Below are positions 7,811 through 58,270 of a stretch of 64,000 bases of DNA, piece by piece (the first letter of the stretch is position 1; the number at the start of each line of letters is the position of its first letter). The position numbers and the translations under genes are program-made. The DNA is taken from contig OZ024744.1 of the NCBI GenBank assembly GCA_964016885.1, forward strand, positions 60,822,001 to 60,886,000, given 5' to 3'. Source of the stretch: Eledone cirrhosa. Lineage: Eukaryota. A model generated the notes under the pieces. That model was not told where the DNA came from. It searched no databases and worked only from the letters and a program-made list of their open reading frames with translations.

Positions 7811-8447
7811 TATATATAACCTATACTGGCATGGAAAAATGGACATTAAATGATGATAATATATACATATATATATACACCCACACCATATAATATATTG
7901 TAGTACACCTCTCAACTCACTAAGTACTTACCACAACCTTATGTTATATGGATTAGTGAGATAAACAGATAGAGGAAGTTCAAGAATGGTCAGGAGCCGA
8001 AAACTACATTGACGAGTACTCATCAAACAGATGCAAGCATGGAAAAAATGGACATAAAAATAATGATTATGAGACTTTGGTGCTACTAATACTACACAAC
8101 CAATGGTGAAACTGTTTGTGTACCAGTTCAGCTTTCATAACACAGTTTCTAAATATTATAGCTGAAAATAATTTATCCCCATTGATAACCCCCAACAAAA
8201 TGAATGAAATGCATCTCTACTTTAAAATTGAAAGTCGTTACATTTGCTATATCTTCTAACAACAATGCTGCTACAAAGAAGCAGAGGGTGAAGTCTCCTT
8301 GGAAAACATTCTAAAGAAGAAAGGTGATGCAAGAACTGGCATTTGTAAGTAGCCTGATGATTTCAAATGAATAAAATGGCTCTAATCCTGTAGAAATCCC
8401 TTCTATATCAAATAAATATATATCCTAATGTGTATATATATATATAT

Positions 8448-10923: not shown

Positions 10924-11612
10924 TATATATTCACACATGTACACACCTTATTTAACTAGAAATGGTAGCAAAAAGTGACCGTGCAGACAATTGAAGCAAA
11001 TTAAAACTAATGATTATTTTAAAATGAAAAAACAATGTTATATATAAAGTTCCTTCAAGACATATTTGTTCAAAAAGGTTGGCTGGATTAAACTGGAGCA
11101 AATTTATGGACTGAAAATGTGTACACTTAGGGATTTTTAAGAATGTTGAAAAAAACCCCCAAAAACTTGTTGGTTTGGGACATTTTAGATCCCAAGAAGC
11201 ACCTAGAAGGAAACAATATTATAAGTGCATTAATTCTAAGGGGACTGATATGTGTTGTCCCCCACTCATTCCAGGCCATGACTAACCATAGGTTTGCTCC
11301 TGAAAAATTTCTCTTTGAGACACAAATCTTGGTAAGGTATTTTATGGAAGACCAGCAGTCATCCCTATATGCTATCCACTTCTCTCCACACGCCACTGAA
11401 TTTGGCCAAGAGAAAAGCAAAGGCAGATACAGCTTGGTAACATATTTTCCCTCCAGCTGAGTGAACAGAAGGAATATGAAAAAAGAGTATTGTTCAAGGA
11501 CACAATATGCTGCCCAATCTGGGAATTGACTTCACAATCTTTCCATTGTGAGCCAAACACTATTCCAGGGAAACTAACATTCAGCCTCTTAAAGACAATA
11601 TTTGTTGTGGTG

Positions 11613-14600: not shown

Positions 14601-17600
14601 CTACTGGATGTGATGTACATGATCCACTACTGGATGTGATGTACATGATCCACCACTGGATGTGATGTACATGATCCACTACTGGATGTGATGTACATGA
14701 TCCACTACTGGATGTGATGTACATGATCCACCACTGGATGTGATGTGATGTACATGATCCACCACTGGATGTGATGTACATGATCCACCACTGGATGTGA
14801 TGTACATGATCCACTACTGGATGTGATGTACATGATCCACCACTGGATGTGATGTACATGATCCACTACTGGATGTGATGTACATGATCCACTACTGGAT
14901 GTGATGTACATGATCCACCACTGGATGTGATGTGATGTACATGATCCACTACTGGATGTGGTGTACATGATCCACTACTGGATGTGATGTGATGTACATG
15001 ATCCACTACTGGATGTGATGTACATGATCCACTACTGGATGTGGTGTACATGATCCACTACTGGATGTGATGTACATGATCCACCACTGGATGTGATGTG
15101 ATGTACATGATCCACTACTGGATGTGGTGTACATGATCCACTACTGGATGTGGTGTACATGATCCACTACTGGATGTGATGTACATGATCCACCACTGGA
15201 TGTGATGTGATGTACATGATCCACTACTGGATGTGGTGTACATGATCCACTACTGGATGTGATGTACATGATCCACTACTGGATGTGGTGTACATGATCC
15301 ACTACTGGATGTGATGTACATGATCCACCACTGGATGTGGTGTACATGATCCACCACTGGATGTGATGTACATGATCCACTACTGGATGTGATGTACATG
15401 ATCCACTACTGGATGTGATGTACATGATCCACCACTGGATGTGATGTGATGTACATGATCCACCACTGGATGTGATGTACATGATCCACTACTGGATGTG
15501 ATGTACATGATCCACTACTGGATGTGATGTACATGATCCACTACGGGATGTGATGTACATGATCCACTACTGGATGTGGTGTACATGATCCACTACTGGA
15601 TGTGATGTACATGATCCACTACTGGATGTGATGTGATGTACATGATCCACTACTGGATGTGATGTACATGATCCACCACTGGATGTGATGTGATGTACAT
15701 GATCCACTACTGGATGTGGTGTACATGATCCACCACTGGATGTGATGTGATGTACATGATCCACTACTGGATGTGATGTACATGATCCACTACTGGATGT
15801 GATGTACATGATCCACCACTGGATGTGATGTGATGTACATGATCCACTACTGGATGTGGTGTACATGATCCACCACTGGATGTGATGTGATGTACATGAT
15901 CCACTACTGGATGTGATGTACATGATCCACTACTGGATGTGATGTACATGATCCACTACTGGATGTGATGTACATGATCCACTACTGGATGTGATGTACA
16001 TGATCCACTACTGGATGTGATGTACATGATCCACTACTGGATGTGATGTACATGATCCACTACTGGATGTGATGTGATGTACATGATCCACTACTGGATG
16101 TGGTGTACATGATCCACCACTGGATGTGATGTGATGTACATGATCCACCACTGGATGTGGTGTACATGATCCACTACTGGATGTGATGTACATGATCCAC
16201 TACTGGATGTGATGTGATGTACATGATCCACCACTGGATGTGGTGTACATGATCCACTACTGGATGTGATGTACATGATCCACCACTGGATGTGATGTAC
16301 ATGATCCACTACTGGATGTGATGTACATGATCCACCACTGGATGTGATGTACATGATCCACTACTGGATGTGATGTACATGATCCACTACTGGATGTGAT
16401 GTACATGATCCACCACTGGATGTGATGTACATGATCCACCACTGGATGTGGTGTACATGATCCACTACTGGATGTGATGTACATGATCCACTACTGGATG
16501 TGGTGTACATGATCCACTACTGGATGTGATGTACATGATCCACCACTGGATGTGGTGTACATGATCCACTACTGGATGTGATGTACATGATCCACTACTG
16601 GATGTGGTGTACATGATCCACCACTGGATGTGATGTGATGTACATGATCCACTACTGGATGTGATGTGGTGTACATGATCCACTACTGGATGTGATGTAC
16701 ATGATCCACTACTGGATGTGGTGTACATGATCCACTACTGGATGTGGTGTACATGATCCACTACTGGATGTGATGTACATGATCCACTACTGGATGTGGT
16801 GTACATGATCCACCACTGGATGTGATGTACATGATCCACTACTGGATGTGATGTGATGTACATGATCCACTACTGGATGTGATGTACATGATCCACTACT
16901 GGATGTGGTGTACATGATCCACCACTGGATGTGATGTGATGTACATGATCCACTACTGGATGTGATGTACATGATCCACTACTGGATGTGGTGTACATGA
17001 TCCACTACTGGATGTGATGTACATGATCCACTACTGGATGTGATGTACATGATCCACTACTGGATGTGATGTACATGATCCACTACTGGATGTGATGTGA
17101 TGTACATGATCCACTACTGGATGTGATGTACATGATCCACTACTGGATGTGATGTGATGTACATGATCCACTACTGGATGTGATGTACATGATCCACTAC
17201 TGGATGTGGTGTACATGATCCACCACTGGATGTGATGTGATGTACATGATCCACTACTGGATGTGATGTACATGATCCACTACTGGATGTGGTGTACATG
17301 ATCCACTACTGGATGTGATGTACATGATCCACTACTGGATGTGATGTACATGATCCACTACTGGATGTGATGTACATGATCCACTACTGGATGTGATGTA
17401 CATGATCCACCACTGGATGTGATGTGATGTACATGATCCACTACTGGATGTGATGTACATGATCCACTACTGGATGTGGTGTACATGATCCACTACTGGA
17501 TGTGGTGTACATGATCCACTACTGGATGTGATGTGATGTACATGATCCACTACTGGATGTGATGTACATGATCCACCACTGGATGTGATGTACATGATCC

Positions 17601-20600
17601 ACTACTGGATGTGGTGTACATGATCCACTACTGGATGTGATGTACATGATCCACTACTGGATGTGGTGTACATGATCCACTACTGGATGTGGTGTACATG
17701 ATCCACTACTGGATGTGATGTACATGATCCACTACTGGATGTGGTGTACATGATCCACTACTGGATGTGATGTACATGATCCACTACTGGATGTGGTGTA
17801 CATGATCCACTACTGGATGTGGTGTACATGATCCACTACTGGATGTGGTGTACATGATCCACTACTGGATGTGGTGTACATGATCCACTACTGGATGTGA
17901 TGTACATGATCCACTACTGGATGTGGTGTACATGATCCACTACTGGATGTGATGTACATGATCCACTACTGGATGTGGTGTACATGATCCACTACTGGAT
18001 GTGATGTACATGATCCACTACTGGATGTGATGTACATGATCCACTACTGGATGTGATGTACATGATCCACTACTGGATGTGGTGTACATGATCCACTACT
18101 GGATGTGATGTACATGATCCACTACTGGATGTGATGTACATGATCCACTACTGGATGTGATGTACATGATCCACTACTGGATGTGGTGTACATGATCCAC
18201 TACTGGATGTGGTGTACATGATCCACTACTGGATGTGGTGTACATGATCCACTACTGGATGTGATGTACATGATCCACTACTGGATGTGATGTACATGAT
18301 CCACTACTGGATGTGGTGTACATGATCCACTACTGGATGTGGTGTACATGATCCACTACTGGATGTGGTGTACATGATCCACCACTGGATGTGTTGTACA
18401 TGATCCACTACTGGATGTGATGTACATGATCCACTACTGGATGTGGTGTACATGATCCACTACTGGATGTGGTGTACATGATCCACCACTGGATGTGTTG
18501 TACATGATCCACTACTGGATGTAATGTGATGTACATGATCCACTACTGGATGTGGTGTACATGATCCACTACTGGATGTGATGTACATGATCCACCACTG
18601 GATGTGATGTGATGTACATGATCCACTACTGGATGTGATGTACATGATCCAACTGGATGTGATGTACATGATCCACTACTGGATGTGATGTACATGATCC
18701 ACTACTGGATGTGATGTACATGATCCACTACTGGATGTGATGTACATGATCCACTACTGGATGTGATGTACATGATCCACTACTGGATGTGGTGTACATG
18801 ATCCACTACTGGATGTGGTGTACATGATCCACTACTGGATGTGGATGTACATGATCCACTACTGGATGTGATGTACATGATCCACTACTGGATGTGATGT
18901 ACATGATCCACTACTGGATGTGATGTACATGATCCACCACTGGATGTGATGTGATGTACATGATCCACTACTGGATGTGATGTACATGATCCACTACTGG
19001 ATGTGATGTACATGATCCACTACTGGATGTGGTGTACATGATCCACTACTGGATGTGATGTACATGATCCACTACTGGATGTGATGTACATGATCCACCA
19101 CTGGATGTGATGTGTTGTACATGATCCACTACTGGATGTGATGTACATGATCCACCACTGGATGTTGATGTGATGTACATGATCCACTACTGGATGTGGT
19201 GTACATGATCCACTACTGGATGTGATGTACATGATCCACTACTGGATGTGATGTACATGATCCACTACTGGATGTGATGTACATGATCCACCACTGGATG
19301 TGATGTGTTGTACATGATCCACTACTGGATGTGATGTACATGATCCACCACTGGATGTGATGTGATGTACATGATCCACTACTGGATGTGGTGTACATGA
19401 TCCACTACTGGATGTGATGTACATGATCCACTACTGGATGTGATGTACATGATCCACTACTGGATGTGATGTACATGATCCACTACTGGATGTGATGTAC
19501 ATGATCCACTACTGGATGTGATGTACATGATCCACCACTGGATGTGATGTGATGTACATGATCCACTACTGGATGTGATGTACATGATCCACTACTGGAT
19601 GTGATGTACATGATCCACTACTGGATGTGGTGTACATGATCCACTACTGGATGTGATGTACATGATCCACTACTGGATGTGGTGTACATGATCCACTACT
19701 GGATGTGATGTACATGATCCACTACTGGATGTGATGTACATGATCCACCACTGGATGTGATGTGTTGTACATGATCCACTACTGGATGTGATGTACATGA
19801 TCCACCACTGGATGTGATGTGATGTACATGATCCACCACTGGATGTGATGTACATGATCCACTACTGGATGTGGATGTACATGATCCACTACTGGATGTG
19901 ATGTACATGATCCACTACTGGATGTGATGTACATGATCCACTACTGGATGTGATGTACATGATCCACTACTGGATGTGGTGTACATGATCCACCACTGGA
20001 TGTGATGTGATGTACATGATCCACTACTGGATGTGGATGTACATGATCCACCACTGGATGTGATGTACATGATCCACCACTGGATGTGATGTACATGATC
20101 CACCTACTGGATGTGATGTACATGATCCACCACTGGATGTGATGTACATGATCCACCACTGGATGTGGTGTACATGATCCACCACTGGATGTGATGTACA
20201 TGATCCACCACTGGATGTGATGTACATGATCCACTACTGGATGTGATGTACATGATCCACCACTGGATGTGATGTACATGATCCACCACTGGATGTGATG
20301 TACATGATCCACCACTGGATGTGATGTACATGATCCACTACTGGATGTGGTGTACATGATCCACTACTGGATGTATGTGATGTACATGATCCACCACTGG
20401 ATGTGGTGTACATGATCCACTACTGGATGTGATGTACATGATCCACTACTGGATGTGATGTGATGTACATGATCCACCACTGGATGTGGATGTACATGAT
20501 CCACCACTGGATGTGATGTACATGATCCACCACTGGATGTGATGTACATGATCCACCACTGGATGTAATGTGATGTACATGATCCACTACTGGATGTGAT

Positions 20601-23600
20601 GTACATGATCCACCACTGGATGTGATGATGTACATGATCCACCACTGGATGTGATGTACATGATCCACCACTGGATGTGATGTACATGATCCACCACTGG
20701 ATGTGATGTACATGATCCACTACTGGATGTGATGTACATGATCCACCACTGGATGTGATGTGATGTACATGATCCACCACTGGATGTGATGTACATGATC
20801 CACACTGGATGTGATGTACATGATGCACCACTGGATGTGGTGTACATGATCCACTACTGGATGTGGTGTACATGATCCACTACTGGATGTGATGTACATG
20901 ATCCACTACTGGATGTGGTGTACATGATCCACTACTGGATGTGATGTACATGATCCACTACTGGATGTGGTGTACATGATCCACCACTGGATGTGATGTG
21001 ATGTACATGATCCACCACTGGATGTGATGTACATGATCCACCACTGGATGTGATGTACATGATCCACCACTGGATGTGATGTACATGATCCACCACTGGA
21101 TGTGGTGTACATGATCCACTACTGGATGTGATGTACATGATCCACCACTGGATGTGATGTACATGATCCACCACTGGATGTGATGTACATGATCCACCAC
21201 TGGATGTGATGTACATGATCCACCACTGGATGTGATGTACATGATCCACCACTGGATGTGATGTGATGTACATGATCCACCACTGGATGTGATGTACATG
21301 ATCCACCACTGGATGTGATGTGATGTACATGATCCACCACTGGATGTGATGTACATGATCCACTACTGGATGTGATGTACATGATCCACCACTGGATGTA
21401 TGTGATGTACATGATCCACTACTGGATGTGATGTACATGATCCACCACTGGATGTGATGTACATGATCCACTACTGGATGTGATGTGATGTACATGATCC
21501 ACCACTGGATGTGATGTACATGATCCACCACTGGATGTGATGTACATGATCCACTACTGGATGTGGTGTACATGATCCACCACTGGATGTGATGTGATGT
21601 ACATGATCCACTACTGGATGTGATGTACATGATCCACTACTGGATGTGATGTACATGATCCACCACTGGATGTGGTGTACATGATCCACCACTGGATGTG
21701 ATGTGATGTACATGATCCACCACTGGATGTGATGTACATGATCCACTACTGGATGTGATGTACATGATCCACCACTGGATGTGATGTACATGATCCACTA
21801 CTGGATGTGATGTGATGTACATGATCCACCACTGGATGTGATGTACATGATCCACCACTGGATGTGATGTGATGTACATGATCCACTACTGGATGTGATG
21901 TACATGATCCACTACTGGATGTGATGTACATGATCCACCACTGGATGTGGTGTACATGATCCACCACTGGATGTGATGTGATGTACATGATCCACCACTG
22001 GATGTGATGTACATGATCCACTACTGGATGTGATGTACATGATCCACCACTGGATGTGATGTACATGATCCACTACTGGATGTGATGTGATGTACATGAT
22101 CCACCACTGGATGTGATGTACATGATCCACCACTGGATGTGATGTACATGATCCACTACTGGATGTGGTGTACATGATCCACCACTGGATGTGATGTGAT
22201 GTACATGATCCACTACTGGATGTGATGTACATGATCCACTACTGGATGTGATGTACATGATCCACTACTGGATGTGGTGTACATGATCCACCACTGGATG
22301 TGATGTGATGTACATGATCCACCACTGGATGTGATGTACATGATCCACTACTGGATGTGATGTACATGATCCACCACTGGATGTGATGTACATGATCCAC
22401 TACTGGATGTGATGTGATGTACATGATCCACCACTGGATGTGGTGTACATGATCCACTACTGGATGTGATGTGATGTACATGATCCACCACTGGATGTGA
22501 TGTACATGATCCACCACTGGATGTGATGTGATGTACATGATCCACCACTGGATGTGATGTGATGTACATGATCCACCACTGGATGTGATGTACATGATCC
22601 ACCACTGGATGTGATGTACATGATCCACCACTGGATGTGATGTGATGTACATGATCCACCACTGGATGTGATGTACATGATCCACCACTGGATGTGATGT
22701 ACATGATCCACCACTGGATGTGATGTACATGATCCACCACTGGATGTGATGTACATGATCCACCACTGGATGTGATGTGATGTACATGATCCACCACTGG
22801 ATGTGATGTACATGATCCACCACTGGATGTGATGTACATGATCCACCACTGGATGTGATGTACATGATCCACCACTGGATGTGATGTGATGTACATGATC
22901 CACTACTGGATGTGATGTGATGTACATGATCCACCACTGGATGTGATGTACATGATCCACCACTGGATGTGATGTGATGTACATGATCCACCACTGGATG
23001 TGATGTACATGATCCACTACTGGATGTGATGTACATGATGCACCACTGGATGTGATGTACATGATCCACCACTGGATGTGATGTGATGTACATGATCCAC
23101 TACTGGATGTGATGTGATGTACATGATCCACCACTGGATGTGATGTACATGATGCACCACTGGATGTGATGTACATGATCCACCACTGGATGTGATGTGA
23201 TGTACATGATCCACCACTGGATGTGATGTGATGTACATGATCCACCACTGGATGTGATGTACATGATCCACCACTGGATGTGATGTACATGATCCACCAC
23301 TGGATGTGATGTGATGTACATGATCCACCACTGGATGTGATGTACATGATCCACCACTGGATGTGATGTACATGATCCACCACTGGATGTGATGTACATG
23401 ATCCACCACTGGATGTGATGTGATGTACATGATCCACTACTGGATGTGATGTGATGTACATGATCCACCACTGGATGTGATGTACATGATCCACCACTGG
23501 ATGTGATGTGATGTACATGATCCACCACTGGATGTGATGTACATGATCCACTACTGGATGTGATGTACATGATGCACCACTGGATGTGATGTACATGATG

Positions 23601-26488
23601 CACCACTGGATGTGATGTACATGATGCACCACTGGATGTGATGTACATGATCCACTACTGGATGTGATGTACATGATCCACCACTGGATGTGATGTACAT
23701 GATCCACTACTGGATGTGATGTGATGTACATGATCCACCACTGGATGTGATGTACATGATCCACCACTGGATGTGATGTACATGATCCACTACTGGATGT
23801 GGTGTACATGATCCACCACTGGATGTGATGTGATGTACATGATCCACTACTGGATGTGATGTACATGATCCACTACTGGATGTGATGTACATGATCCACC
23901 ACTGGATGTGGTGTACATGATCCACCACTGGATGTGATGTGATGTACATGATCCACCACTGGATGTGATGTACATGATCCACTACTGGATGTGATGTACA
24001 TGATCCACCACTGGATGTGATGTACATGATCCACTACTGGATGTGATGTGATGTACATGATCCACCACTGGATGTGATGTACATGATCCACCACTGGATG
24101 TGATGTGATGTACATGATCCACTACTGGATGTGATGTACATGATCCACTACTGGATGTGATGTACATGATCCACCACTGGATGTGGTGTACATGATCCAC
24201 CACTGGATGTGATGTGATGTACATGATCCACCACTGGATGTGATGTACATGATCCACTACTGGATGTGATGTACATGATCCACCACTGGATGTGATGTAC
24301 ATGATCCACTACTGGATGTGATGTGATGTACATGATCCACCACTGGATGTGATGTACATGATCCACCACTGGATGTGATGTACATGATCCACTACTGGAT
24401 GTGGTGTACATGATCCACCACTGGATGTGATGTGATGTACATGATCCACTACTGGATGTGATGTACATGATCCACTACTGGATGTGATGTACATGATCCA
24501 CTACTGGATGTGGTGTACATGATCCACCACTGGATGTGATGTGATGTACATGATCCACCACTGGATGTGATGTACATGATCCACTACTGGATGTGATGTA
24601 CATGATCCACCACTGGATGTGATGTACATGATCCACTACTGGATGTGATGTGATGTACATGATCCACCACTGGATGTGGTGTACATGATCCACTACTGGA
24701 TGTGATGTGATGTACATGATCCACCACTGGATGTGATGTACATGATCCACCACTGGATGTGATGTGATGTACATGATCCACCACTGGATGTGATGTGATG
24801 TACATGATCCACCACTGGATGTGATGTACATGATCCACCACTGGATGTGATGTACATGATCCACCACTGGATGTGATGTGATGTACATGATCCACCACTG
24901 GATGTGATGTACATGATCCACCACTGGATGTGATGTACATGATCCACCACTGGATGTGATGTACATGATCCACCACTGGATGTGATGTACATGATCCACC
25001 ACTGGATGTGATGTGATGTACATGATCCACCACTGGATGTGATGTACATGATCCACCACTGGATGTGATGTACATGATCCACCACTGGATGTGATGTACA
25101 TGATCCACCACTGGATGTGATGTGATGTACATGATCCACTACTGGATGTGATGTGATGTACATGATCCACCACTGGATGTGATGTACATGATCCACCACT
25201 GGATGTGATGTGATGTACATGATCCACCACTGGATGTGATGTACATGATCCACTACTGGATGTGATGTACATGATGCACCACTGGATGTGATGTACATGA
25301 TCCACCACTGGATGTGATGTGATGTACATGATCCACTACTGGATGTGATGTGATGTACATGATCCACCACTGGATGTGATGTACATGATGCACCACTGGA
25401 TGTGATGTACATGATCCACCACTGGATGTGATGTGATGTACATGATCCACCACTGGATGTGATGTGATGTACATGATCCACCACTGGATGTGATGTACAT
25501 GATCCACCACTGGATGTGATGTACATGATCCACCACTGGATGTGATGTGATGTACATGATCCACCACTGGATGTGATGTACATGATCCACCACTGGATGT
25601 GATGTACATGATCCACCACTGGATGTGATGTGATGTACATGATCCACTACTGGATGTGATGTACATGATCCACCACTGGATGTGATGTGATGTACATGAT
25701 CCACCACTGGATGTGATGTACATGATCCACCACTGGATGTGATGTACATGATCCACCACTGGATGTGATGTGATGTACATGATCCACCACTGGATGTGAT
25801 GTACATGATCCACCACTGGATGTGATGTACATGATCCACCACTGGATGTGATGTACATGATCCACCACTGGATGTGATGTGATGTACATGATCCACCACT
25901 GGATGTGATGTACATGATGCACCACTGGATGTGATGTACATGATCCACCACTGGATGTGATGTGATGTACATGATCCACCACTGGATGTGATGTGATGTA
26001 CATGATCCACCACTGGATGTGATGTACATGATCCACCACTGGATGTGATGTACATGATCCACCACTGGATGTGATGTGATGTACATGATCCACCACTGGA
26101 TGTGATGTACATGATCCACCACTGGATGTGATGTACATGATCCACCACTGGATGTGATGTGATGTACATGATCCACTACTGGATGTGATGTGATGTACAT
26201 GATCCACCACTGGATGTGATGTACATGATCCACCACTGGATGTGATGTGATGTACATGATCCACTACTGGATGTGATGTACATGATCCACTACTGGATGT
26301 GATGTACATGATGCACCACTGGATGTGATGTACATGATGCACCACTGGATGTGATGTACATGATCCACCACTGGATGTGATGTACATGATGCACCACTGG
26401 ATGTGATGTACATGATCCACTACTGGATGTGATGTACATGATCCACCACTGGATGTGATGTACATGATCCACTACTGGATGTGATGTA
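11613..26488. repeat. ~14.9 kb tandem satellite, unit CTGGATGTGATGTACATGATCCACYA (26 bp) with 31-bp variants (extra GATGT)
   Basis: Continuous array read directly; all HHIQWWIMYITSS ORFs in the track are translations of it. Confidence 0.99.
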
Positions 26489-27271
26489 ACATGTTTTTAG
26501 TGTTTATTTTTTTTGTGCATTTGCTACATACAAAGCCTACTTTCTCAGTTCGGACTGACTAATTCCATTATCTTTTGTGCAGTCATTGTTCACACAGTGA
26601 GCACTCCATGGAACCTCCACATCTGCTGTTGTGTATAGAACTTTATACATCTATCAACTGATTACATTCCACACACACATATATAAATATGTTAACTGAT
26701 TATATACCATACACAAATATGGAACTATATACACACACACATGTCAACTAATTACATGCCATATAGACATATATATAGACTTTATACATATCTTAACTGA
26801 TTACATTCCACATACACATGTATAGAACTTTATACATCACTCAACAGGTTACACACACACAGAACTATGTGTCAAATGATTACATTCCACACACACAAAC
26901 CCAGACACGTGCATGTCAACAGATACTTTTCAAAATATACATATGTATGTTTGTTAATTTTCTTTTTCTTTTTTACTGGTTTCAGTCACTAGACTGAGGC
27001 CATGCTGGAATACAATATATATATAATATATATATATATTGTATCAATTAATAAGATCCCAGACCTCAAGGGTTACTAATCAAATTGGATCAAGGAAACA
27101 TTGGTCTTTTCATTGCTGATAGTATCTACTGGTTGCAATTCCTGGCAGAAAGAACAATGTCAAATAAAGTGTCTTGCTCAAGGATATAACACATTAGCCA
27201 GTTCGGGAATCAGATTCACAATTATGAGGTTGTGAATCCTCTAACCACTGATATATTAGTATATATATATA

Positions 27272-43970: not shown

Positions 43971-45160
43971 TCCTTTTGGGGTGAATAAAATGAAGTACCA
44001 TACCGTGGTGGTAGACTGGAGGAATGGGATGCCTTGTGGAATCTGTTCCTGCAATTTACATTCTAAGTTCTAATTCCAATTGGAGATTCAAATCTCACAA
44101 ATGATCAGGACTAACCACCCGACCAAGGGAACACAGCTGATTACAAAATCTGCAATGGGTGGATAAGGATTGGAGCTGTATGTTATTACAGTGGAACTAT
44201 GATAATGATGATGGCAGTGATGGTAATTATGATGAGGATAAGGATAATGGCCATGAAAATGATTGTAATGATGATGATAGTGGTGGTGACCCAAAATGAA
44301 CTCACTAATAGCACCTAATAACCAGATATTGTAGTTGTTATGGCTCACCTACATAGGTTTAGCTGGTCTCCAATTGGGTTCTATCTTGGATCTTTTAATG
44401 AAAAAGCCAACACTCTACATCTTGTAGTAGTTGTTATGGTTCACACATATGCTGTCCACCACTCCTTATGAAGTTACATATCATAGGAAGTTTCTTGAGT
44501 GTTTTAATGATAGGACACCTATCCTACCTAAAGCAGTAGGATTTGAACTCAGAATGTACAGAGCTGGGACAAATACTGCAAAGCATTTTGTCTGACACTA
44601 ATAATTCTGCCAATCCACCAACCCTGGACTGGTACTTATTTATTGATCTTGAAGAAATGAAAGACAAACATGAGTTTGGTAGGAAATGATCTCAGTGCAC
44701 AGAGAACCAGAACAAATACTGCAAGGTTATCAACTTAGTTAGACACTAACAATTATGCTAATTTACCACTTTTGGTGATGGTGGTGTTGGTATTTGTAGT
44801 GTGACTTTACTGCAATCAAAAATATTCACCACTGTTGCACCCCAACAACATAACCTTTTCATTACTATATTTCTAATGAAAGACATTGCCCATGATTTTT
44901 AAAATAATGTTTGAAAATATTCAAGAATTTAGTAATATAACTAACTTTGTCATTATTAAGTTGTTTGGAGTATAACTTAAATTATAATGAAAGATTTTTT
45001 TTAATTCAAGTATAATCACTTTAAAATAGTTTTGTGTTTTAGAATTAGGGCCACTTTCAGATGGTTTGGTATCAAATGAGTTACAAAAATCCCCAAACAG
45101 ACAGATAATGACACCAGCAAAAAAAACAAAACAAACGAGAGAGAGAGAAACAAATGTTAC

Positions 45161-45538
45161 CTGTCGTTTTGAATTGGATACAAGAAGAGGAAGGCTTTCG
45201 TGACGTCTTGATGCTGTTGCTGACGATGATGAGGTTGATGATGATGACGAAGACGATTTGGACCTTAGAGAAGGGCCCGCCGAAGTAGAAGCTGTTTGGT
45301 TGGCGTTTTTCAGTCCTTCCAGTAACCTTATTAGCAGGATGTTAGATGGCAAGTCCTCAACGCGATACGACACCAGCGTTCTACATTCAGGACATCGGAG
45401 CTCTTTCTTGGTGCTCACTATCTCGTCGAGACACCGTCGACAAAATGTGTGTTGGCATGGTAGCACTTTGCTTGTGTGGTCGAGTCTTTCTAGACAGACT
45501 GAACATTCCAGTAGCTCATTCAACGCCTGTTCATCCAT
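45161..45538 (-). CDS. SH3RF1: SH3 domain-containing RING finger E3 ligase (POSH/SH3RF family), first coding exon: C3HC4 RING plus Ser-rich linker
   Basis: [37 protein letters not shown]...CPECR is the POSH-type N-terminal RING. Donor CAG|GTAACA at 45161/45160; 378 nt, phase 0. The symbol denotes the family (invertebrate POSH), not a specific vertebrate paralogue. Confidence 0.95.
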
Positions 45539-46166
45539 CTTTTTTTTTAACCAAGAGAAAGGAATAAAAAAAGAATGAAATGATTTATTTTATTATTTAA
45601 TAATACTTCTACTACTATTACTAACAAAAATTATATTTGCCACAAGGGTAGTGGATGGAAATGTGACATTAGACAAAATGGCTATTCATTGGCTGTGGAT
45701 GCACAAAAAAAACAACAAAATGTACATGAAAAAAAAAAAATGAAATAAAAACATATATACACACGTGTATATCATAATATAAATGGTTAACATTATATGC
45801 ACTGGCCTGGTGCCTAAAGTAGAAACAATTATTTTTAATGATAAACTTAAATAATACATTTATGCACACTTTGTTCAATAGCTTGATCCAGTGAAAGTAA
45901 TGTGATGACTATGGGTAAACAATTGTAATTTATTCAGCTAGACATTTAAATAAGATATATTTGATGCTGAAAATCTATCAGGTCACTTTAGTGTAATACT
46001 CTATATGGTTGCCTGAATACAGATACACAGTTTGTTTACTGTAACTAGTTCTATCACATTTTTCCATCATATTTTAGCATGTATAAATGTACTATTTAAG
46101 TTATACCAATGACTCTTAGCTTTTGACTCACTCATATTGGTTCACAGTTACAATGTATATATAAAA

Positions 46167-46767: not shown

Positions 46768-48360
46768 ATATATCTATTCTTAATTTGTCTAAATTAGTTT
46801 GAGTTGTCTAAATGGGACTTGCTTGAAGCTTTTTCTAGCACTTCTGTCCTATCACATCTGCCCTTCCATTATAGTATATATATTTGGGGTCTTTAAACAG
46901 TACTTAGTTAAACTGCTATGCAAGTTTCATAGTTCCTTATGGAGAGAGGAGGGCAATTATAAAGGCAAGGTAATAAATATTTATGTTAACTGTTTGAATT
47001 ATTTCGGCATTACCTGTTTCATAAACATAAATACATCTAACTCATATCTCCTTACCTGTTCATGTTTATGAAACTACTGGTAATTTAGAAATAAGTCAAA
47101 CTGTTAACAATCTCAGCTGGATTGCACTTTTCCTTTGTTTGTATCCAATCCCATACATATATAGTTGTATCTGTATATATTGAGAATAGAGGTAACCAAC
47201 ACTGTGCACACCTTTATATATATCATCTAAGATGGCATTATCTAATGTGTTCTTCTATTTTTAAGACAGTAATAGTGTAATATGAGGGACAATTGTCTTA
47301 TTTGTAGCATCCTGAATGATGGGCTGTCATGTTACGAGACAAGTCAAGTCAGGTGACCACATCTTGCTCATACAGATCTGTTTTTGGCTTGTTTTTCTAT
47401 GCTGGATGTCCTTCCTAATGCTAACTATGTTACGTGGCAGACTGGGTGCTTTTTTGTCATGTCATCAGCACGATCACCTTAGAGAGTAGACTGGGTGATT
47501 TTTGTTGTGGCACCAGTACAACCAGCATACAGGCTTGGTTAGATGCTTACCATGACACCAATATAACCTCTTTACTAAGGTGCTTCTTTTACGGTGCCAG
47601 CATGACTACCTTATACAGTCGATTAACATTTATTTTTCATACGTGCATGGGTTAGACTGGTTGCCATATTGAGACAGAACAGCGCTTCAGAATTATATAA
47701 TATTAAAAGCCTCATATGTCTGTTTGTACCGTAACACTTTAGCATTTAAACTAGCCATATATGACCAGAATTCTCTCACCTCTTTCTGTTTAAACCAGCC
47801 ATAACCGGCCTCTCATATTTATGTTAAAGTATTGTTCGCAAAATAAATAATACCAAAATCTCATAGATTCAATATTATGTGAAAATATAATAGTAAATAT
47901 AGAGTAATGTAAATGCTAAAGGGTTAAATGTAGCTAAAACATTCCATTGTACCATAAAAATGTTTTGATTTATGAACTCTTAAACATATGCTCTTTACCT
48001 AAAATAACTTCCAGCAAATTTTGTGTATGAAACCCCTCAAAACAGAAGGATATTTTGTCTTATATAAATCAATACAGAGAAATGTCATTTGCAGGTATTA
48101 ATGGAGAACGAATGTGCTCCTAAAAAAAAAAAAAATGCAGATATATATATGAAAAAACACACAAAGATACATATATATGAAAACATACACATAAGAGATG
48201 TATATATAAAACATACACATCTAATAAAAAATGACATTAAGAATGAGAGAGCAGGGAATGAAATGAAGAAATACTGATAGGGAATGAAAAAGAGGAGTTG
48301 AAATGAACAACAAACGAGAGGGTGTTCTATAATTGTAGTGCATGTGTGTGTATGTATATA

Positions 48361-48419
<59 letters not shown>

Positions 48420-48774
48420 TATTCACATTTATTTATACATATATGTATATATACACATGATATATATGTATATGTTTGTGTGGATATAATATATACATAA
48501 TATCAAACATTTTTCACTTGCATGCACACACACAATAAATGATATACATTCCACTCTTAATTTAGTACTGATTTTTGTTTCATTGTTTCATAAAAGACAG
48601 CAAATGAACAAAAACAATATGAATCGGATCATTTACTGGTTTCAGTAATTTGACTCCTCTGTGAAGAGAACTGTCTTTAAGAGATTCATCAATCATATTG
48701 ATCCCAATAATTATTTCAATCTGGTACATATTACATTCATCTCTGAAACACTATATTACGGGACAAAAATAAGA

Positions 48775-48805
<31 letters not shown>

Positions 48806-49150
48806 CTTTAGTTTCCTACGTTCACTTACAAGGTATTAGTCAACCCATGGCTACAGTAGAAGACACCAGAACAAATCCAAAACCATGTGGTTGTGAAGCA
48901 TCCTTCATAACCAGACAGAGTCACCTGCACCTACATTAAACATTGCATACTTTATTGCATTCAGATATTGATGCAGTGATCCTAAACTTCACCACAATAT
49001 GGGAACCGTTTCCCAAGCAGTGGGCTGCATGGATATTTCTCATCATAAGGCAGTCCGCACTACTATAAAAATTCAAGGTAATTTTTTGTTAGGTGTGCCG
49101 CCATTCAAAAAGCCAAACGGGCTGAAGTTTCTCCTCGACTAGTTTAATGT

Positions 49151-49379
49151 TTAACCCTTTAGCATTCACATTACTCTATATATACTATTGAATTTTCACA
49201 GTAAATGCTTGAACTCACATAATTATCTCCCATAATATCGAATCTATGAGATTTTGATGTTATTTATTTTGATAACAATACCTTAACATTGGTATGAGTG
49301 GCTGGTTATGGCCAGCTTGAACACAAAGAGGTGAGAGAATTCTGGCAGGATCCAGCCAGTTGAAATGTTAAAGTGTTAA
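49151..49379. mobile_element. piggyBac-like MITE (further copies at 31701-31924 and 47732-47927)
   Basis: TTAA|CCCTTTAGCATT...AATGYTAAAGKG|TTAA termini; internal sequence shared by the three copies. Confidence 0.7.
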
Positions 49380-50585
49380 GGTTATGATTAGGATTTAAGC
49401 TTTATGGTTTAGTGTTTAGTTAGATTTAAATTTATGGTTAAATGGTGAAGAGTGAATTCAAAAATTGAATTCGCTTATTATTTTTGCAGAATCATATTCT
49501 CCAAAGTTTAAAGCATAGATATAAAAAAAAATTCCTAAAAATATAAAGTTTAGTAGGTGGATGCTTATTGCACCACTCCACTATATGATTTGCTGATATA
49601 CATACACACACACATATATATATATATAATAGACTGGACTGTCACGAATGGGATGACTTTGTGCTATTTCCTTTTATAGTGGTTTGAAATGCAAATAAAA
49701 TTCTCCTTTACAAATGCTATTAACATTGTCTTTGAAATAATACATTCATATAGTTTTATCATGTATCTAATTTAAAAAAAAGAAAAACAAGCACTGACTG
49801 CTTTATTTCCTACGCAAGGCCGGGTAGCCTACCTCATATATAAAATTAGAAGAGTTGAAATAATTAGCTTTTATGTATTGAATGTAAATATGAATATTGG
49901 ACTAGCGAAATGAATGTAAACAATGAGAAAATATGTAGAGCGCGCGCGCGCGCACAAGCCGAAACCGCTTGGCGCCGCGGTTGTGATTTTATTTATCACT
50001 AAGTATGTATATCTATATAATAGGAAAAAGAAAAAAAATATATATATATTGGTATATGTGTGTGTGTGTGAGTATGATCGGTCTTCATTGGAATGGATTT
50101 TCTCCAATAAAACCTAAATCTCCGCATGAAGGCAGCATGGCTGAATGGTTAAGATCGCTTCGCAATCATTAGGTCATGCTCAAGCAGACTGTTGCGCTGA
50201 TCGAACAACTGATACTCATCATGGAAACAGAGGAGGTCATTCTACCTTCCCGTAAAACTTCGAGTAAATACGGAATGAATCAGCGGCTTTTACAATATAT
50301 CCATTCTCTTTTTACTGAACTGCAGCCGTGTTGGGGGTCACCGCCATCAATGGGGTCTTTAATATATATATAAATCTCAACACTTATTTTAATTCTGGTA
50401 TTAAATTTATCGCTCTCCATTTGTCGTACCGCTACTTACTTAACGTAAAAGGGATAAAACATAAGCACTGGTGTTCAGGCCGGTTTAAAATACATGTACA
50501 TATGTAATTATGCGGTTTGACAAATAATGATCGATAACATAAATAACAGACCGAAATAAGAACGGGGGTGGATATGGTCAAACTA

Positions 50586-50646
<61 letters not shown>

Positions 50647-50923
50647 TTCATTTAACATATAAATATTTCCACACACATACGTTAGCTGTAATGAACAGGA
50701 AAAATAGTACACAATATATAGTTAGTAGTTTCTGTCTACAAAATTCGATTCAGAAAGTGTCAGCTATAGGCTATTGTTAGGAGTCACCCCGCAGAGGGAT
50801 CGAATTCCGAACTACATGGCTACAAAACGAAGTTCATAATCAGAAAGACAACACACACATTCCCACTGAAATCGAATGGGCTGTCATATATATATACATA
50901 TATACACACACACACACACACAC

Positions 50924-50962
<39 letters not shown>

Positions 50963-51027
50963 TTATACTTGGGGAGGGTCATATTTGTGTAATATTGCCA
51001 GAATTAATAACAGAACACACTCACTGT

Positions 51028-51500
<473 letters not shown>

Positions 51501-51545
51501 GTTATTGACGTAAGAATGAGTATTCAATACCGAAATAATAAATAC

Positions 51546-51577
<32 letters not shown>

Positions 51578-51766
51578 TGAATAAAGTAAATATATACGTT
51601 ATGCTATGTAATTATATAACATATATGTGCGTATGTATATGTATTATTCACTACAATACAGCTAACTAACGGTGGGTGGTGTTCCGATCTCGTCCGATCC
51701 GATAGTTTTGACATTTTCAAAGCAAAACAAATAAAGGTTTGTGACTAATGTCTATGTAGACACACA

Positions 51767-51801
<35 letters not shown>

Positions 51802-52014
51802 GAGACTAGAGGTATGAAACAAGTGGTGAGTGACACAGTTGAACCTGTCACACATCTAAGGGAACGGCGATGTCGTCGTTGTGGTGGTTGATCTAGATAT
51901 TATACAAAAACAAACCTAACTAATTTACTGACGAGACAAGGGAGTTTCTACTCGACCTGCAGCCAAATCACATATCACTTGCAACAAGCAACAAAAACAA
52001 AGGAAAGCCACATG

Positions 52015-52048
<34 letters not shown>

Positions 52049-52757
52049 TTAGCAAAATAAAGAAAATACGTATAGTAGATCTTGTGTGTCTATCTTTTGT
52101 ATATTTACACACACACATATGTAAATATGCGAAAGATACACATACAAAGATTTTCTATATGTAAAGTGTAACGTACACATATTTTCTTTTTTTTTTTAAA
52201 TCTGGGTACATTCGAGATTCATTCTTTCCATTCACTCATTTCACATAGACAATGGTCATAGCCTTCAACTAGTTTATAAATACTTGTAGAGCACCCTCGT
52301 TGAATATATGTAATCATTCAGTATAGCAATTTATGTAAAATGAAATGATGGTAGATGCCCGAATTCAACCGGTTAAACTTTTAACTATATCGTATTCCAT
52401 CTTTTACTCTATCAATAATTATGTGTGTGTGTGTGGTGTACACATACATTCATACACACTAGATGTATGTTCGAACTAATCAATTACTCGAAATTAAAGA
52501 GATAACAGCCAAATCTTCAAATAACATCCAATGGATAACGTAGTTCTAGGTGCACTATATCTGAAAAACAAAAACAAAATAAAGATGGTACGGTCACGGA
52601 TGTAACGTCTTTTAGATCATAGGTTTTGCTGGACCAGGGCTAACCTGAAATTAAACAACAGCGATCGAGTTGAAAAGCTCTCACATCTGAATGTGTGTGT
52701 GTGTGTATACATATACAATATATTAACAAATGGAAACTATATTTATAAAACCATATT

Positions 52758-52823
52758 TATTTTATTATACATATTTCAAGGGCCACCAAGTCAAACTATG
52801 GTGCGCTTTCATCAGATAAAATA
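52758..52823 (-). ncRNA. Type I minimal hammerhead ribozyme, intact core (opposite polarity)
   Basis: Minus strand TATTTTAT-CTGATGA-AAGCGCACCA(tagtttgact)TGGTGGCCCTT-GAAATATGTATA-ATAAAATA; predicted cut 52766/52765. Confidence 0.8.
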
Positions 52824-52909
52824 CAATACAGATTTGTTTTATAACGGTTGGAGCTTCCTGGAAAGCTCCAACCGTTATAAAACAACATTTATAAAACAAA
52901 TCTGTATTG

Positions 52910-52975
52910 TATTTTATCTGATGAAAGCGCACCATAGTTTGCCTTAGTAGCCCTTGAAATATGTATAATAAAATA
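52910..52975 (+). ncRNA. Type I minimal hammerhead ribozyme, intact core
   Basis: Stem I TATTTTAT(52910-17)/ATAAAATA(52968-75); CTGATGA 52918-24; stem II AAGCGC...GCCCTT; GAAA 52956-59; stem III ATA-tg-TAT; AUA cleavage triplet, predicted cut 52967/52968. Confidence 0.8.
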
Positions 52976-53144
52976 AATATAGTTTCCATTTGTTAATACA
53001 TTGTATATTTACTCCACTAATCTGTTGGGTGCTTTATATCAGTTATAAAAAATTTTAAGCTTGTTGAATCCCAACAAATTAAATATAACCTCTGCATATA
53101 TATATATATATTAGTATTGGTGCTCTGAAATAGTGATGTATACA

Positions 53145-53198
<54 letters not shown>

Positions 53199-53530
53199 CA
53201 TACATATATATACATACATACATATCGTTTGTCGCGTATGTCGTTATAAATTTTAGTCATTTTGTATGGGAACGTTGTTTGGGAGTTTAAATAACACCAA
53301 AGAAGTTTTGTTAGGAAATGTCAAGCAGGTTGTACAAATTAATAAAATAAATAATAATCCCACACTTTGTCTAAACAACATTCCAGTGGAGTTGTTTGGT
53401 TAGTTTACTTTCTGCTTTGAACCAACATAAGGGTTTTACTAGGCTCTAAACAATTTATTATTGTTGCTTATAACCTCGGGTCAATTTTGATAGCGCACAC
53501 CTCTACAACCGAAAGAACATTCCAGCCGTT

Positions 53531-53575
<45 letters not shown>

Positions 53576-53877
53576 TGCAGTAGAACTGTCTGTGACAGTG
53601 ACCAGGTCGCAGACTGTGTGACGAAAATTTTGATACCAAAAAATAAACGATAAATATAAAGTGAAGTTGACAGTTTTTGTATTTTTGAATAGCAAGAATG
53701 CCTCTTCTATACTGTAATTGCTTTAGTTTCAACACACGATCTCAGATCAAGTCACTTGCAAGACAAATAAATACAAACAACTCCGGAATACACACACACA
53801 TACATACATACATACATACATACATACATACATACATACATACATACATACATACATACATACATACATACATACAT

Positions 53878-53909
<32 letters not shown>

Positions 53910-54646
53910 GATACTAATCATATTATCCTATTTTAATGAAATCGTACGTTCAAGAGAAAAGGTTTGAATTTCGCAGGGGTGGTTATGGAATTCAATAAGC
54001 AAAATGCTTGTCTTACCTCCAAAACATTTATTTTTTCATTTCAACGAAGCATTAATATTATATACGTTAGTTCTTGCCCAGAGAATTGTTGAAACCACTG
54101 AGATATTATTTTAGATTATAACAGCATCGACCCCAGAATATAGCGGTTGGTTGTTTTATTGACATACGAATTAAAAAAATTGGTTGTGAAATAGAAAATT
54201 AGTATAGGCATATAACACAAGAATTAAAACCTATCATTTAAGTTTGTGATAAAGTTCAACTGTTATATATATATATATGTATATATATATAGGTTACTCC
54301 TGGTTTTGGGGAGAATATTAGGCGTTGAATGTAGTTGTAGTAGTAGTAGAAAGATGGTTTGATGACAGGTTGGCACGTATGTCGTCCATATAAAGTTTGG
54401 CTTTTTTTTTTTTTATATAGCCGCAGCTTTTATATAGTCTGGCAAAGATAGATCTAGATATACTCAAGCCGAGAAAAAGAAATACTTTTTATCGTACGTG
54501 GTGGTCACACAATGTGCTAGAAATAACAACCAAATCTCCCACTCCACTTCTATTTCATTAAAACAAACAAGGACACGTTGGATAACGTAATTCTAGAGAT
54601 TATATACTACTACTACTGCTGCTACATACCGCTATGATATATATAT

Positions 54647-54708
<62 letters not shown>

Positions 54709-55349
54709 CGTGTGCGTGTGTGTGTTAGCTATAACAGCCATACGACCTGGTAGAAATATCAAATCTCACACTAAAATCACGGAGTACTGTCTTAAATTAC
54801 GAAGCGCACATTGCATAATGTATTCCTTAGATACCTATATATACAAACTACTATATATATAGGAAGCTCTAAACGGTCACTCGACAAGCTAGAAATAGCA
54901 GCGAAATCTCTCTACAATCACAGTACTGATTTTCTGGCGGAAAGAATTTGAATGATCAGATTACATAAGACAAGATGGTCACGATTGGAACGTCTTCGAT
55001 AATAAGTCCGATCGGTCAGAGCTAACGTGGAACTAAACAACAACTAAGCACGATATACTTTATATATTATACACCATATATATATTATAGTCACTGTTGG
55101 AACGACTTTGATTTTAGTTCTGCTGGATCAAGGCTGACATAGGGCTAAATAACAACTATGGATAAATAAATAGACAACATAGTAAATAGTAAAGGTACAT
55201 ATATATATATAATATTCATGTGAGCAACAGAGAAAAAGAACCGAGTGGGTAACCGACAGGGTAAGACAGATAGAAAAGGAGAGCAAGTGTGTGAAAGATT
55301 TTCAACTTTTGTAAGGTGTAAAGAAAGATAAATGAAATTTGAAACACAC

Positions 55350-56100
55350 CTCTTCGATAAACGACGTTTGATTGTCCCGTTGGTATGCCGACAGGGGTTT
55401 AAGAACAAAGAGTTTTTCCGCGTGTACATGTGTTTTCGTCTATGAATATAAATATATATATATTTGTCGTGGATCCAAAGCTAGTGAATTCTAGCTAAGC
55501 CAAGCCAGCCAAGCCAGCCAAGCCAAAGCTTAAAGCTAAGTCACACCAAGTTAAGCTTAAGCTAGTCAAAGCTACTAAGCCAAGTGACAAAGCTTAAGTT
55601 AAGCAAGCAAGCAAGTGAAGCAAAGCTAAACGAAGCTCAGTCGAATGGAGCCGAGACAGTAAAAGTCATAGCTTAAAGAGAGGCTAGACACCATGAAACA
55701 ACACAAGTAACTTCGAAGCCATGTCGGTTTACACCGGAAGTTGTTGTAAGAGGCGTGGGGTGAACGAAAAGGGGGGAGAAATATGTTGGAAATGTTGTCA
55801 GTGCCCGCTCTCTTTCTCTCCCCGCTCTCTCTCTCTCTTTACACATATATAGAAACATACATATATACAAACTATCTATCTATATATATATGTGTACACC
55901 TGCGTATACCCGTCTACCTTTCTCAACATGTCTTTCCATCTTATCAACAATTGGCAAAAACACACACGCATATATTTATATATATACATACACACACGCA
56001 GAGAGAGAGAGAGAGAAAAAAGAGGGTGAGACGAAGATCAGCAATTGAGAAATTTTAGTTTCCATTAAATCGTATCACTCCACCGTCAGTATTGAGTATT
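55350..56100 (-). promoter_or_regulatory. Candidate promoter / non-coding first exon of the POSH gene
   Basis: CpG-retaining stretch without recognisable TEs upstream of the ATG exon; possible donor GAG|GTGTGT at 55350/55349; AAGC(C/T) low-complexity tract 55477-55640. No transcript evidence. Confidence 0.3.
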
Positions 56101-56140
56101 GTTTTTTTTCCTTGTTTACTCTTACGCACACACATATACA

Positions 56141-56172
<32 letters not shown>

Positions 56173-56942
56173 ACATACATATTTAAATACAGCGAGTGAG
56201 AGAGTGTGTGTGTGTACATTTACGGCGTGTATTTTTAGTAAACACATTTTTAACCCCGCTGTGAATAGATGGCTGTTAAGTATCTTTTTCTCACAGTGGC
56301 CAGATAAAGGAGATCAACCCTACTGGTTTCAGTTTTTCTTCTTTTTACTGCTTCATCAAACATAGTTTACAAGGTTTCGTGATCACACAGAGAATGGGAG
56401 CATATAGCCAATGCTAGTGCTCTAAGCTAGCTCTACAATGTGCGCCCCATTCTCATAATAAATTCATTTCAACTTACTGTTTGGTAAGCTGACGAATCTG
56501 GTTTTACCATTTCTTGCTCTGACCACACTCAGAAAATTACTAAACTTACATTTTCAACTACACTGTCCACACTCACCCACCCCAAATGACATGACAGATT
56601 ATAACACCTTACAGTCCTCACATACACTTTTGTATATTTCTACTATGTTCTACACAGCAAAGATGTTTATTTATTGATCGCGTGAAATTATTATATATTT
56701 AATTTAATTATGCAAATTTGTATAAAAGTGCGATTCTCCACAGTTAAGTAATGCTCCTTTCTGGGGCCTACACTTTAAGTGGCTGGCTGGTTAGGTTCTG
56801 GCCCTGCTTATAACTAATTATATCATACACAAATCTGATAGAACTAAAAGTGGTCTGTTCTAATTTGCTTAGCAATCAATGGTTGGCAATGTGAATGAAC
56901 GAATGAATACAATATTAGAAGTATTATTTAGCATTAGGAAAT

Positions 56943-56973
<31 letters not shown>

Positions 56974-56992
56974 TTAAATATGTATTGATACC

Positions 56993-58270
56993 TTAAAAAA
57001 AAAAAAAAAGGGGAAACAAAAACGAAAACAACCATAAATTCACCATCAAGTGCGACAATCGGCTGCACACTACAAGGGTCAATGGAACACTGAGGCAAGC
57101 CAACATGCTTGCAACATTTTCGCGGGTGATGGCGAGGCTAAGGTGCTGAAACAACCAGGCACCCTCGTGAGCATCACCTGACATCTCAGTAAGGCGAGCC
57201 GCCAATGATGACAAGAACTTAAGTGTCAGCGGCCCAAATCCAGTCACAGGCTGGAAAAAATAATTATTAGATAAATCCAGATATTTCTGAATTTTATTCT
57301 GTTTAGCAATGGAAGCAGTGACCCCAACATTTACCGCGGCGTCCATGATGTGGGAGGGAGCAAAAGTGTCAATGACTGTGATGTCCCAGATGAGACGCCT
57401 ACCTTTTACTCAGGGACAAAGGATAAGGCCGTCTGGTCTCTTCCCCTAACTTCCGGATAATCCAGCGAGTTCCAGAACTATGGGAATATTTACCTGAGCC
57501 AGGGCCTATTTAATGATCAGGTTTAGCTTGGTGTGGTGGGTGAAACAACCAGCATTCAGGCGGCAGGACAAACCTCGACTGTGGAGTCGAGGGGCCTATC
57601 ACAGTGACATCTCAGACCCCCACAGACATTGGCTCTCACTCAAAGTGAGATGGAGATGTGGAGCTTGTCCTGCCCTAGAAGGCCACCAATGTTGGCCACA
57701 GGCAGGGCATCAATCCAGTTTGCCAAAAAGTTTGCGCTTGCAGAAAGCAAGCGGCAGCTAGAAAATTGATCAGAATGATTAAAGAGAGAGTTAAAAGTTT
57801 CCCTGGAATGCAGATTGTCCCATACTCTCTGCTTCCATCTATCTTCATCAGTAATGGGAACTGACAAACCTAGCTCTCTCCACTAGTAAAGCTTCGTTCA
57901 TCGCCTAGATGGAACTAGTCCATGCTGGAAAGGAGAGGATGTTGCCTACTAAAGAAGAGCAAGCATGGATGGAGGAAAGAAAGCAATGTAGAGACAAAGA
58001 TGTGCATTTACACAGACCAAGACCTCCAAACCATTTGGGCAACGCAGCTTGGTCGCAGGACTTGGACATTGATCAGACTCTCAAGCTCACTGAATATTAG
58101 GTTGTCAAAGTGTTGGAGAGACGACGAGAATTTGTAAGAAGGACTAACTCTGAGGAAATATAACAATTTAAGGATTGACAAATAATTCCTAAGTATAAAA
58201 AAACCTTGGTGAGGCTCAATGACTTCGAGGTTTGTTAAAAGTTGCTCGAGTTTTGCCAACTTAGATCGAA
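56993..58270 (-). mobile_element. Decayed CRE-like non-LTR retrotransposon 3' part (restriction-like endonuclease)
   Basis: GKRPDGLI (~57421-57446), L.WDITV.DT.APS, K..KY..L..FFQP..GFGP..GD..E...L.Q.LSLAI.R.N motifs typical of CRE-clade RLE domains. Confidence 0.7.

Follow-up and report, generated by a model that had tools for sequence, protein, structure and literature searches.

Several described systems resemble the element analysed here; statements on them, here and below, refer to the available parts of each source. Hydra-clade Penelope-like elements (PLEs) leave inverted 5'-truncated copies with one-sided tails and insert into (TA)n targets (Craig et al. 2021, PMC8557442). In Schistosoma, dual hammerhead motifs lie on opposite strands about 100-700 bp apart and probably belong to truncated PLEs (Cervera and de la Pena 2014, PMC4209133), and in Adineta vaga, Penelope insertions occur head to head with palindromes at their junctions (Arkhipova et al. 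2013, PMC3846280). The protein of the anole PLE Poseidon PAc cleaves and extends both target strands, with two RNA start sites bounding the tail; it uses uncleaved RNA as template, and a dimeric form is predicted for it (Frangieh et al. 2024, PMC11167929). In the available text of that paper the term 'head-to-head' does not occur, and 'inverted' occurs once, for a blocking nucleotide.

The element described here lies in a 64-kb stretch of DNA (the window, i.e., the whole stretch analysed), and its coordinates are positions in that window; the genome searched was the 3.0-Gb assembly to which the window belongs. It is virtually certain to consist of the terminal repeat (pLTR) of an abundant PLE, present as two arms joined head to head. 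Positions within the pLTR are numbered from C3 of the hammerhead, with a natural copy (L038) as reference. Arm A (52,711-52,862, minus strand, by alignment to L038) follows a (TG)n/TA microsatellite target (52,690-52,710, from the sequence) and extends from the tailless end A (about +104; BLAST gives +107 because the target resembles the next pLTR bases) to position -84, which is a 5' hot spot common among pLTR copies. Arm B (52,887-53,008, plus strand, by alignment) starts at position -31 and is followed by a one-sided tail of 87 nt (53,009-53,095, plus strand, delimited from genome copies), which ends at end B (+191) beside an (AT)8 target (53,096-53,111, from the sequence). Between the arms is a junction insert of 23 nt plus one extra base (52,863-52,886, plus strand, from sequence and alignment). 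At both flanks, no target-site duplication was readable in the microsatellite. Arm A carries a 37-nt internal deletion whose junction occurs once in the 3.0-Gb genome, while arm B is without 14 nt downstream of the hammerhead, the gap lying between short direct repeats; apart from this 14-nt deletion, the two arms differ at 4 sites.

The original prediction described a rod-like palindrome at 52,711-53,008. The rod is there, but the element continues to 53,095 with the tail of its right arm. Near-total self-complementarity was borne out, the main arms (52,748-52,850 and 52,883-52,985) being 94% complementary, as was the rod fold (-181.8 kcal/mol for 52,700-53,020, z -28.8, with none of 100 shuffles as stable) and the lack of coding capacity, with no ORF of at least 150 aa overlapping the element. 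The window also contains, at 572-662 on the plus strand, another and older piece of this pLTR family (+21 to +107, 88% identity), and a tblastn search of the 64-kb window for a PLE ORF remnant found none.

A type I hammerhead descriptor applied to the 64-kb window returned exactly two motifs, with C3 at 52,918 (plus) and 52,815 (minus), and no motif in any of 50 Markov shuffles of the window. Both have the type I core (C3-A9, G12-A15 and U16-H17) together with three helices. The plus copy (52,910-52,975) consists of stem I (52,910-17 with 52,968-75), the core (52,918-24), stem II (52,925-55), GAAA (52,956-59) and helix III (52,959-66), with H17 at 52,967; the minus copy (52,758-52,823) has H17 at 52,766 and a stem II extended to about 9-10 bp. 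A check of the sequence confirmed the predicted 8-bp stem I, CUGAUGA, GAAA, helix III ATATGTAT and AUA triplet, and the putative cut sites at 52,967/8 (plus) and 52,766/5 (minus) agree with the motif positions. The claim of a complete hammerhead on each strand therefore stands as far as both motifs are real, but they are two copies of one 66-nt sequence, differing at 3 positions in stem II, and not independent ribozymes. The plus copy keeps an intact core but has two G>A changes in distal stem II and has lost two pairs, and its hammerhead-constrained fold reaches only +1.7 kcal/mol vs -4.8 for the minus copy. The hammerhead of the window copy appears to be decaying. An Rfam scan of 48,000-58,000 at E<=1 gave 48 matches, mostly to microsatellite-driven miRNA models and none to a hammerhead family.

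From all loci we collected 130 distinct related motifs, which were chosen for an intact core and are mostly close kin. Among them the 4 inner bases of helix III are self-complementary in 126 of 130 (ATATGTAT, ATATATAT, ATGCGCAT), N7 is variable, and stem pairing is kept through wobble and compensatory changes. This conservation is supportive of, and would fit, a ribozyme of the dimer type that the parent element has retained. As in the minimal metazoan PLE hammerheads of the available text of PMC4209133, the motif is of type I with a long helix II and a small palindromic helix III suited to a dimer. It departs from that description in its AU-only stem I of 8 bp, in an A-U pair at the base of stem II in place of G10.1-C11.1, and in a conserved C-C or C-U mismatch at stem II pair 4 (126/130 motifs). 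At least 6 other type I hammerhead families with a palindromic helix III were seen in about 100 loci (L031-L182), i.e., the genome is rich in them.

In the fold predicted for the full element, the pairing probability of stem I is about 0, and imposing the hammerhead structure carries a penalty of about 85 kcal/mol, so the hammerhead of the window copy is predicted to be locked in the rod. Stem I is likewise absent from the predicted fold of the native pLTR (p 0.003), and for this reason folding is uninformative on ribozyme activity. The suggestion that the antisense arm acts as a built-in off switch was right in its geometry, since this arm comes first on the transcript of either strand and stem I does not form in the fold, but we found no sign of selection or function, and locking in the rod is a consequence of the geometry.

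The parent element was identified from other copies in the genome. In the search with the element itself, for which the best 40 of 1,048 first-look candidates were scored (at least 90 matches), 16 loci were inspected; at these, one arm stops at a TA or TG repeat, and in most of them the other arm continues for about 87 nt to a TA repeat. Among 20 longer loci, L047 has an RT ORF flanked by long arms in inverse orientation, and L045 has pLTR, tail, leader and ORF start (+242) on one strand. In full elements the tail is thus the leader between pLTR and ORF start; its last 24 nt have 2,672 exact matches in the genome. From an RT search in which the best 150 of 45,930 candidates were scored, 19 loci were examined at 10 kb. 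Tail and leader lie upstream of the ORF in direct orientation at L063, L069, L070, L072 and L081, and most of the others have an inverted piece at a truncated 5' end. At L063, L069 and L081 a direct-orientation pLTR is present on both sides of the ORF, with hammerheads 3.0-3.9 kb apart. The first of the two alternatives originally offered, an inverted duplication of a PLE terminal repeat, is strongly supported by these copies, which comprise pLTR, tail, leader and an RT/GIY-YIG ORF.

L063 has an open frame of 743 aa with 24 homologues at E<=1e-20 (7,999 candidates scored). Alignment and a motif check of these proteins revealed RWR/RWK, DKT, YRDD, CxCx5C, a GIY-YIG-like VYNC..YVG and CxxC-E-N-CxH. 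RWR is found in L063 and RWK in 5 of 7 aligned homologues, DKT is present in all 8 rows, and the linker and nuclease motifs of L063 are CNCRNKSNC at 602, CSLCVEE at 694 and CKHR at 721. The nuclease core has no CCHH, only a single Cys between the GIY and YIG halves. Pfam assigned no family to the L063 and L064 ORFs and no RT or nuclease family to the 8 aligned proteins, and a PDB sequence search with the ORF protein gave 2 weak, unrelated matches. Because Pfam finds no RT family in the L063 ORF, the identity of the protein rests on its motifs and homologues.

By these motifs the element is provisionally placed in the Hydra clade of EN+ PLEs. It shares with the C-terminal EN+ PLEs of that clade, as the available text of PMC8557442 describes them, a single ORF with RT followed by GIY-YIG, an RWK-like motif, DKT, the CxCX5C linker, CxxC and CxH around E and N, a hammerhead in the pLTR, (TA)n targets, an inverted copy truncated at its 5' end and a one-sided tail. 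Compared with the same text, the unit here is longer (3.0-3.9 kb in the 3 loci measured vs generally <3 kb), as is the tail (87 nt vs the 30-40 bp described for PLEs), copies number in the thousands, and L063 has RWR in place of RWK. Neptune-clade membership with a CCHH finger, our first guess, was dropped against the Hydra-clade definition in that publication. Later insertions interrupt the pLTR between +42 and +52, within or beside the TA-rich helix III, at three loci (L105, L115 and L166).

A 25-nt hammerhead word has 6,217 exact matches in the genome (control 0). The first 100 of these matches on one contig (C1), which collapse to 87 insertions, served as the sample for family statistics; it leans to young copies, since each insertion had to contain the 25-nt word exactly and to lie on this contig. 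With a pair defined as two head-to-head arms on opposite strands no more than 200 nt apart, 52 of the 87 insertions are pairs, namely 44 A+B, 1 A+A, 0 B+B and 7 with one unclassed end. The remaining 35 were scored as single, and three of them (L143, L166 and L167) have an A+B partner 1.4-7.7 kb away. L127 and L128 are one duplicated locus; when L128 is dropped, 43 of 44 classifiable pairs combine a tailless with a tailed arm (p=3e-12 vs random pairing). The A+B rule is not absolute, because two pairs of tail+tail type (L184, L185) occur among the first 100 tail matches, and inverted arms pass end B into the leader at L065, L066, L078 and L081. A microsatellite adjoins 61 of 68 A ends and 55 of 62 B ends in a test that also accepted CA/TG repeats. 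Thirty-two of the 44 A+B pairs are asymmetric by >30 nt and 12 are symmetric, and arm B stops at +80 or later in 20 of the 44, so that in these it shares little or nothing with arm A. Stops of the anchored arm fall at -92 to -78, at the base of a predicted hairpin, in 31 of 87 insertions. We also observed that 5' ends pile up at -84 to -89 (L038:7600-7645 and relatives), marking a candidate transcription start inside the pLTR. Both arms contain the hammerhead in 19 of the 87 insertions, with junction positions that vary from -109 to -9; these two-hammerhead palindromes appear to form anew at each insertion. The original prediction allowed for a one-off inversion if all other copies proved to be non-palindromic PLE ends, and the 19 palindromes speak against this. 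Hammerhead cleavage as the setter of insertion ends was considered and rejected, because only 2 of 157 5' ends and 2 of 157 3' ends lie near the ribozyme cut site (+50).

Our preferred explanation, to which we give a probability of roughly 0.7, is that the head-to-head pLTR pair stems from one insertion in which both cut target strands primed reverse transcription of the element RNA; with the PLE identity granted, double priming is likewise held to be probable. The GIY-YIG nuclease would cut both strands of a TA-rich target, upon which one 3' end would prime at RNA site A and the other at RNA site B. Both sites end in ATAT-type runs, to which a (TA)n primer could anneal. The two cDNAs would then extend toward the 5' end of the RNA, arm A halting at the hot spot at -84 to -89, which is likely where the transcript starts, and arm B at -31, and the two cDNA ends would be joined by end-joining, with microhomology or a short snap-back. 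An early stop of arm B would leave one hammerhead, whereas passage beyond the hammerhead would create a two-polarity palindrome. Long arms B that overlap arm A would need two RNA templates or strand displacement. The hammerhead would be a feature of the parent element, working there as a dimer or with the help of protein, and the palindrome is likely an ordinary by-product of PLE insertion. In the window copy, arm A ends at the tailless site A and arm B at the tailed site B, both in microsatellite. The scheme resembles what the accessible text of PMC11167929 reports for PAc, in that two internal start sites bound the tail, both strands are cut and extended, the target is AT-rich and the RNA template is uncleaved (here 2/157 + 2/157 ends near the cut site). 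PAc starts 111-118 nt inside the ORF at sites not homologous to its target; both ends here, unlike those of PAc, lie upstream of the ORF start at ATAT runs matching the target.

The alternative that survives best keeps the PLE origin but has the mirror arm made by self-priming, in which a strand folds back and copies itself, e.g., on an antisense template. The available text of the Adineta vaga paper (PMC3846280) favours this proposal for its head-to-head palindromes, which share with ours inverted pLTRs, palindromic junctions and an optional tail on one pLTR. The window copy has a mark of fold-back itself, since its 23-nt junction insert is the exact reverse complement of 52,834-52,856, arm A deletion included, and is likely the product of snap-back synthesis on arm A. 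In addition, the 12 symmetric pairs fit fold-back equally well, 9 other loci have a palindrome centre within one mismatch of that in the window, and arms share private variants. Mean arm divergence is 0.032 within a palindrome vs 0.066 between copies (19 palindromes, including the window copy), although only 14 of 38 arms have their own partner as nearest neighbour. Self-priming nevertheless predicts arms with nearly equal starts, in conflict with the 32 asymmetric pairs and with the 20 whose arm B has little or no sequence to share, and it leaves the combination of a tailless with a tailed arm in 43 of 44 pairs unexplained. Because of this end pairing and asymmetry, priming at two sites from both target strands is favoured, and we regard self-priming as the main source of the pairs as unlikely.

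A later origin of the second arm is quite improbable. Here a single pLTR would have inserted first and been inversely duplicated afterwards by DNA repair or replication, or the arms would have been homogenised after insertion. Such a history would account for the snap-back insert, which resembles an end-joining scar, and for the likeness of the arms within a copy, but not for 52 pairs in 87 insertions with two fixed outer ends abutting microsatellite, because a later rearrangement would not be confined by the two termini of the element itself.

The second alternative of the original prediction, a distinct non-autonomous foldback element (MITE- or retrozyme-like) copied whole, has very little probability left. 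Many palindromes of about 300-380 bp do exist, their centres cluster near -84 to -89, and a near-identical centre recurs at 9 loci. However, these 9 have different private arm variants and carry the tail on the left in some and on the right in others, a pattern that suggests recurrent joining at one short palindromic word close to the 5' hot spot rather than a common master copy. The exact centre of the window palindrome, like the arm A deletion, is present once in 3.0 Gb, which argues against a copied foldback family, and centres vary over the 19 two-hammerhead copies. The resemblance to non-LTR retrozymes (PMC7229834; bioRxiv 10.64898/2026.07.22.740005) is limited, as far as the available text of these sources describes them, to a short, non-coding, PLE-related sequence with a type I hammerhead. 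Retrozymes are head-to-tail tandem repeats yielding circles, whereas the arms here are inverted, belong to a single insertion and have one cut site per strand.

It is scarcely credible that the palindrome represents a viroid-like RNA, or one adopted by the host, with a ribozyme in each polarity and an inherent off switch. Viroid-like ambisense RNAs have distinct ribozymes in each polarity, which release unit-length circles. The rod fold, the motif on both strands, the antisense arm preceding the ribozyme and the cost of about 85 kcal/mol for the hammerhead fold would all suit such an RNA. The analogy fails because the two polarities stem from duplication of one motif, and a unit-length RNA would not be excisable from this locus alone, because it has one cut site per strand; the stem II pairs lost from the plus copy and the arm differences (4 sites plus the 14-nt deletion) are as expected in neutral decay. 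An assembly or sequencing fold-back artefact, for which one could cite that four sequencing runs gave only multi-copy depth and none over the unique left flank (52,610-52,709), is just as hard to credit: substitutions, a deletion and the tail on one side set the arms apart, and dozens of loci, each with flanks of its own, repeat this anatomy.

The window element is thus an ordinary object, one of probably hundreds of similar stumps in a family with >6,000 hammerhead copies. A rod with hammerheads in both polarities, the signature used for viroid-like RNAs, can arise routinely by PLE insertion in animal genomes. Nor are two-polarity palindromes special to one family, because an unrelated type I hammerhead family forms head-to-head opposite-strand pairs as well (L037:3790-4400, L043:6930-7030 and L143:4370-4500, with spacings of about 590, 75 and 105 nt, respectively). 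Head-to-head PLE repeats (PMC3846280), opposite-strand hammerhead pairs (PMC4209133) and inverted truncated copies with tails (PMC8557442) were already described, to judge from the available text of these papers. The A+B end-pairing rule and its reading as double priming were not found in the literature searched, mainly open-access main texts, and may be in print elsewhere. In the accessible text of PMC8557442, Craig et al. 2021 named the origin of PLE inverted repeats and tails as unresolved, and the family statistics bear on this question; they predict different RNA start sites for the extension of the two target strands. We tentatively propose, at slightly less than even odds, that PLEs normally integrate by double priming, with a dimeric complex cutting both (TA)n strands and using one RNA start site per strand. 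Tail and inverted repeat would then be two marks of one mechanism, and the two-hammerhead palindromes, at tens per hundred insertions, the 43/44 pairing and the -84 to -89 stop its genome-scale record. The perfect hairpins seeded in this way, by the hundreds, could supply RNA silencing directed at the family.

Three other features of the window were observed. A RING-finger exon (Pfam zf-C3HC4) is present at 44,921-45,589 on the minus strand, with an N-terminus that we take to resemble SH3RF1/POSH; the element is about 7 kb upstream of this exon on the minus strand, possibly in a 5' intron or upstream region. Two adjacent open frames at 8,429-10,900 on the plus strand, which together encode a divided RVT_1 domain and, at the C-terminus, a PHD finger (Pfam), represent a non-LTR element of unusual domain order. 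Finally, in the region 10,000-27,000 GC rises to 44-45% and open frames recur every 2,236 bases (22,239 and 24,475; 22,348 and 24,584), suggesting a tandem array.
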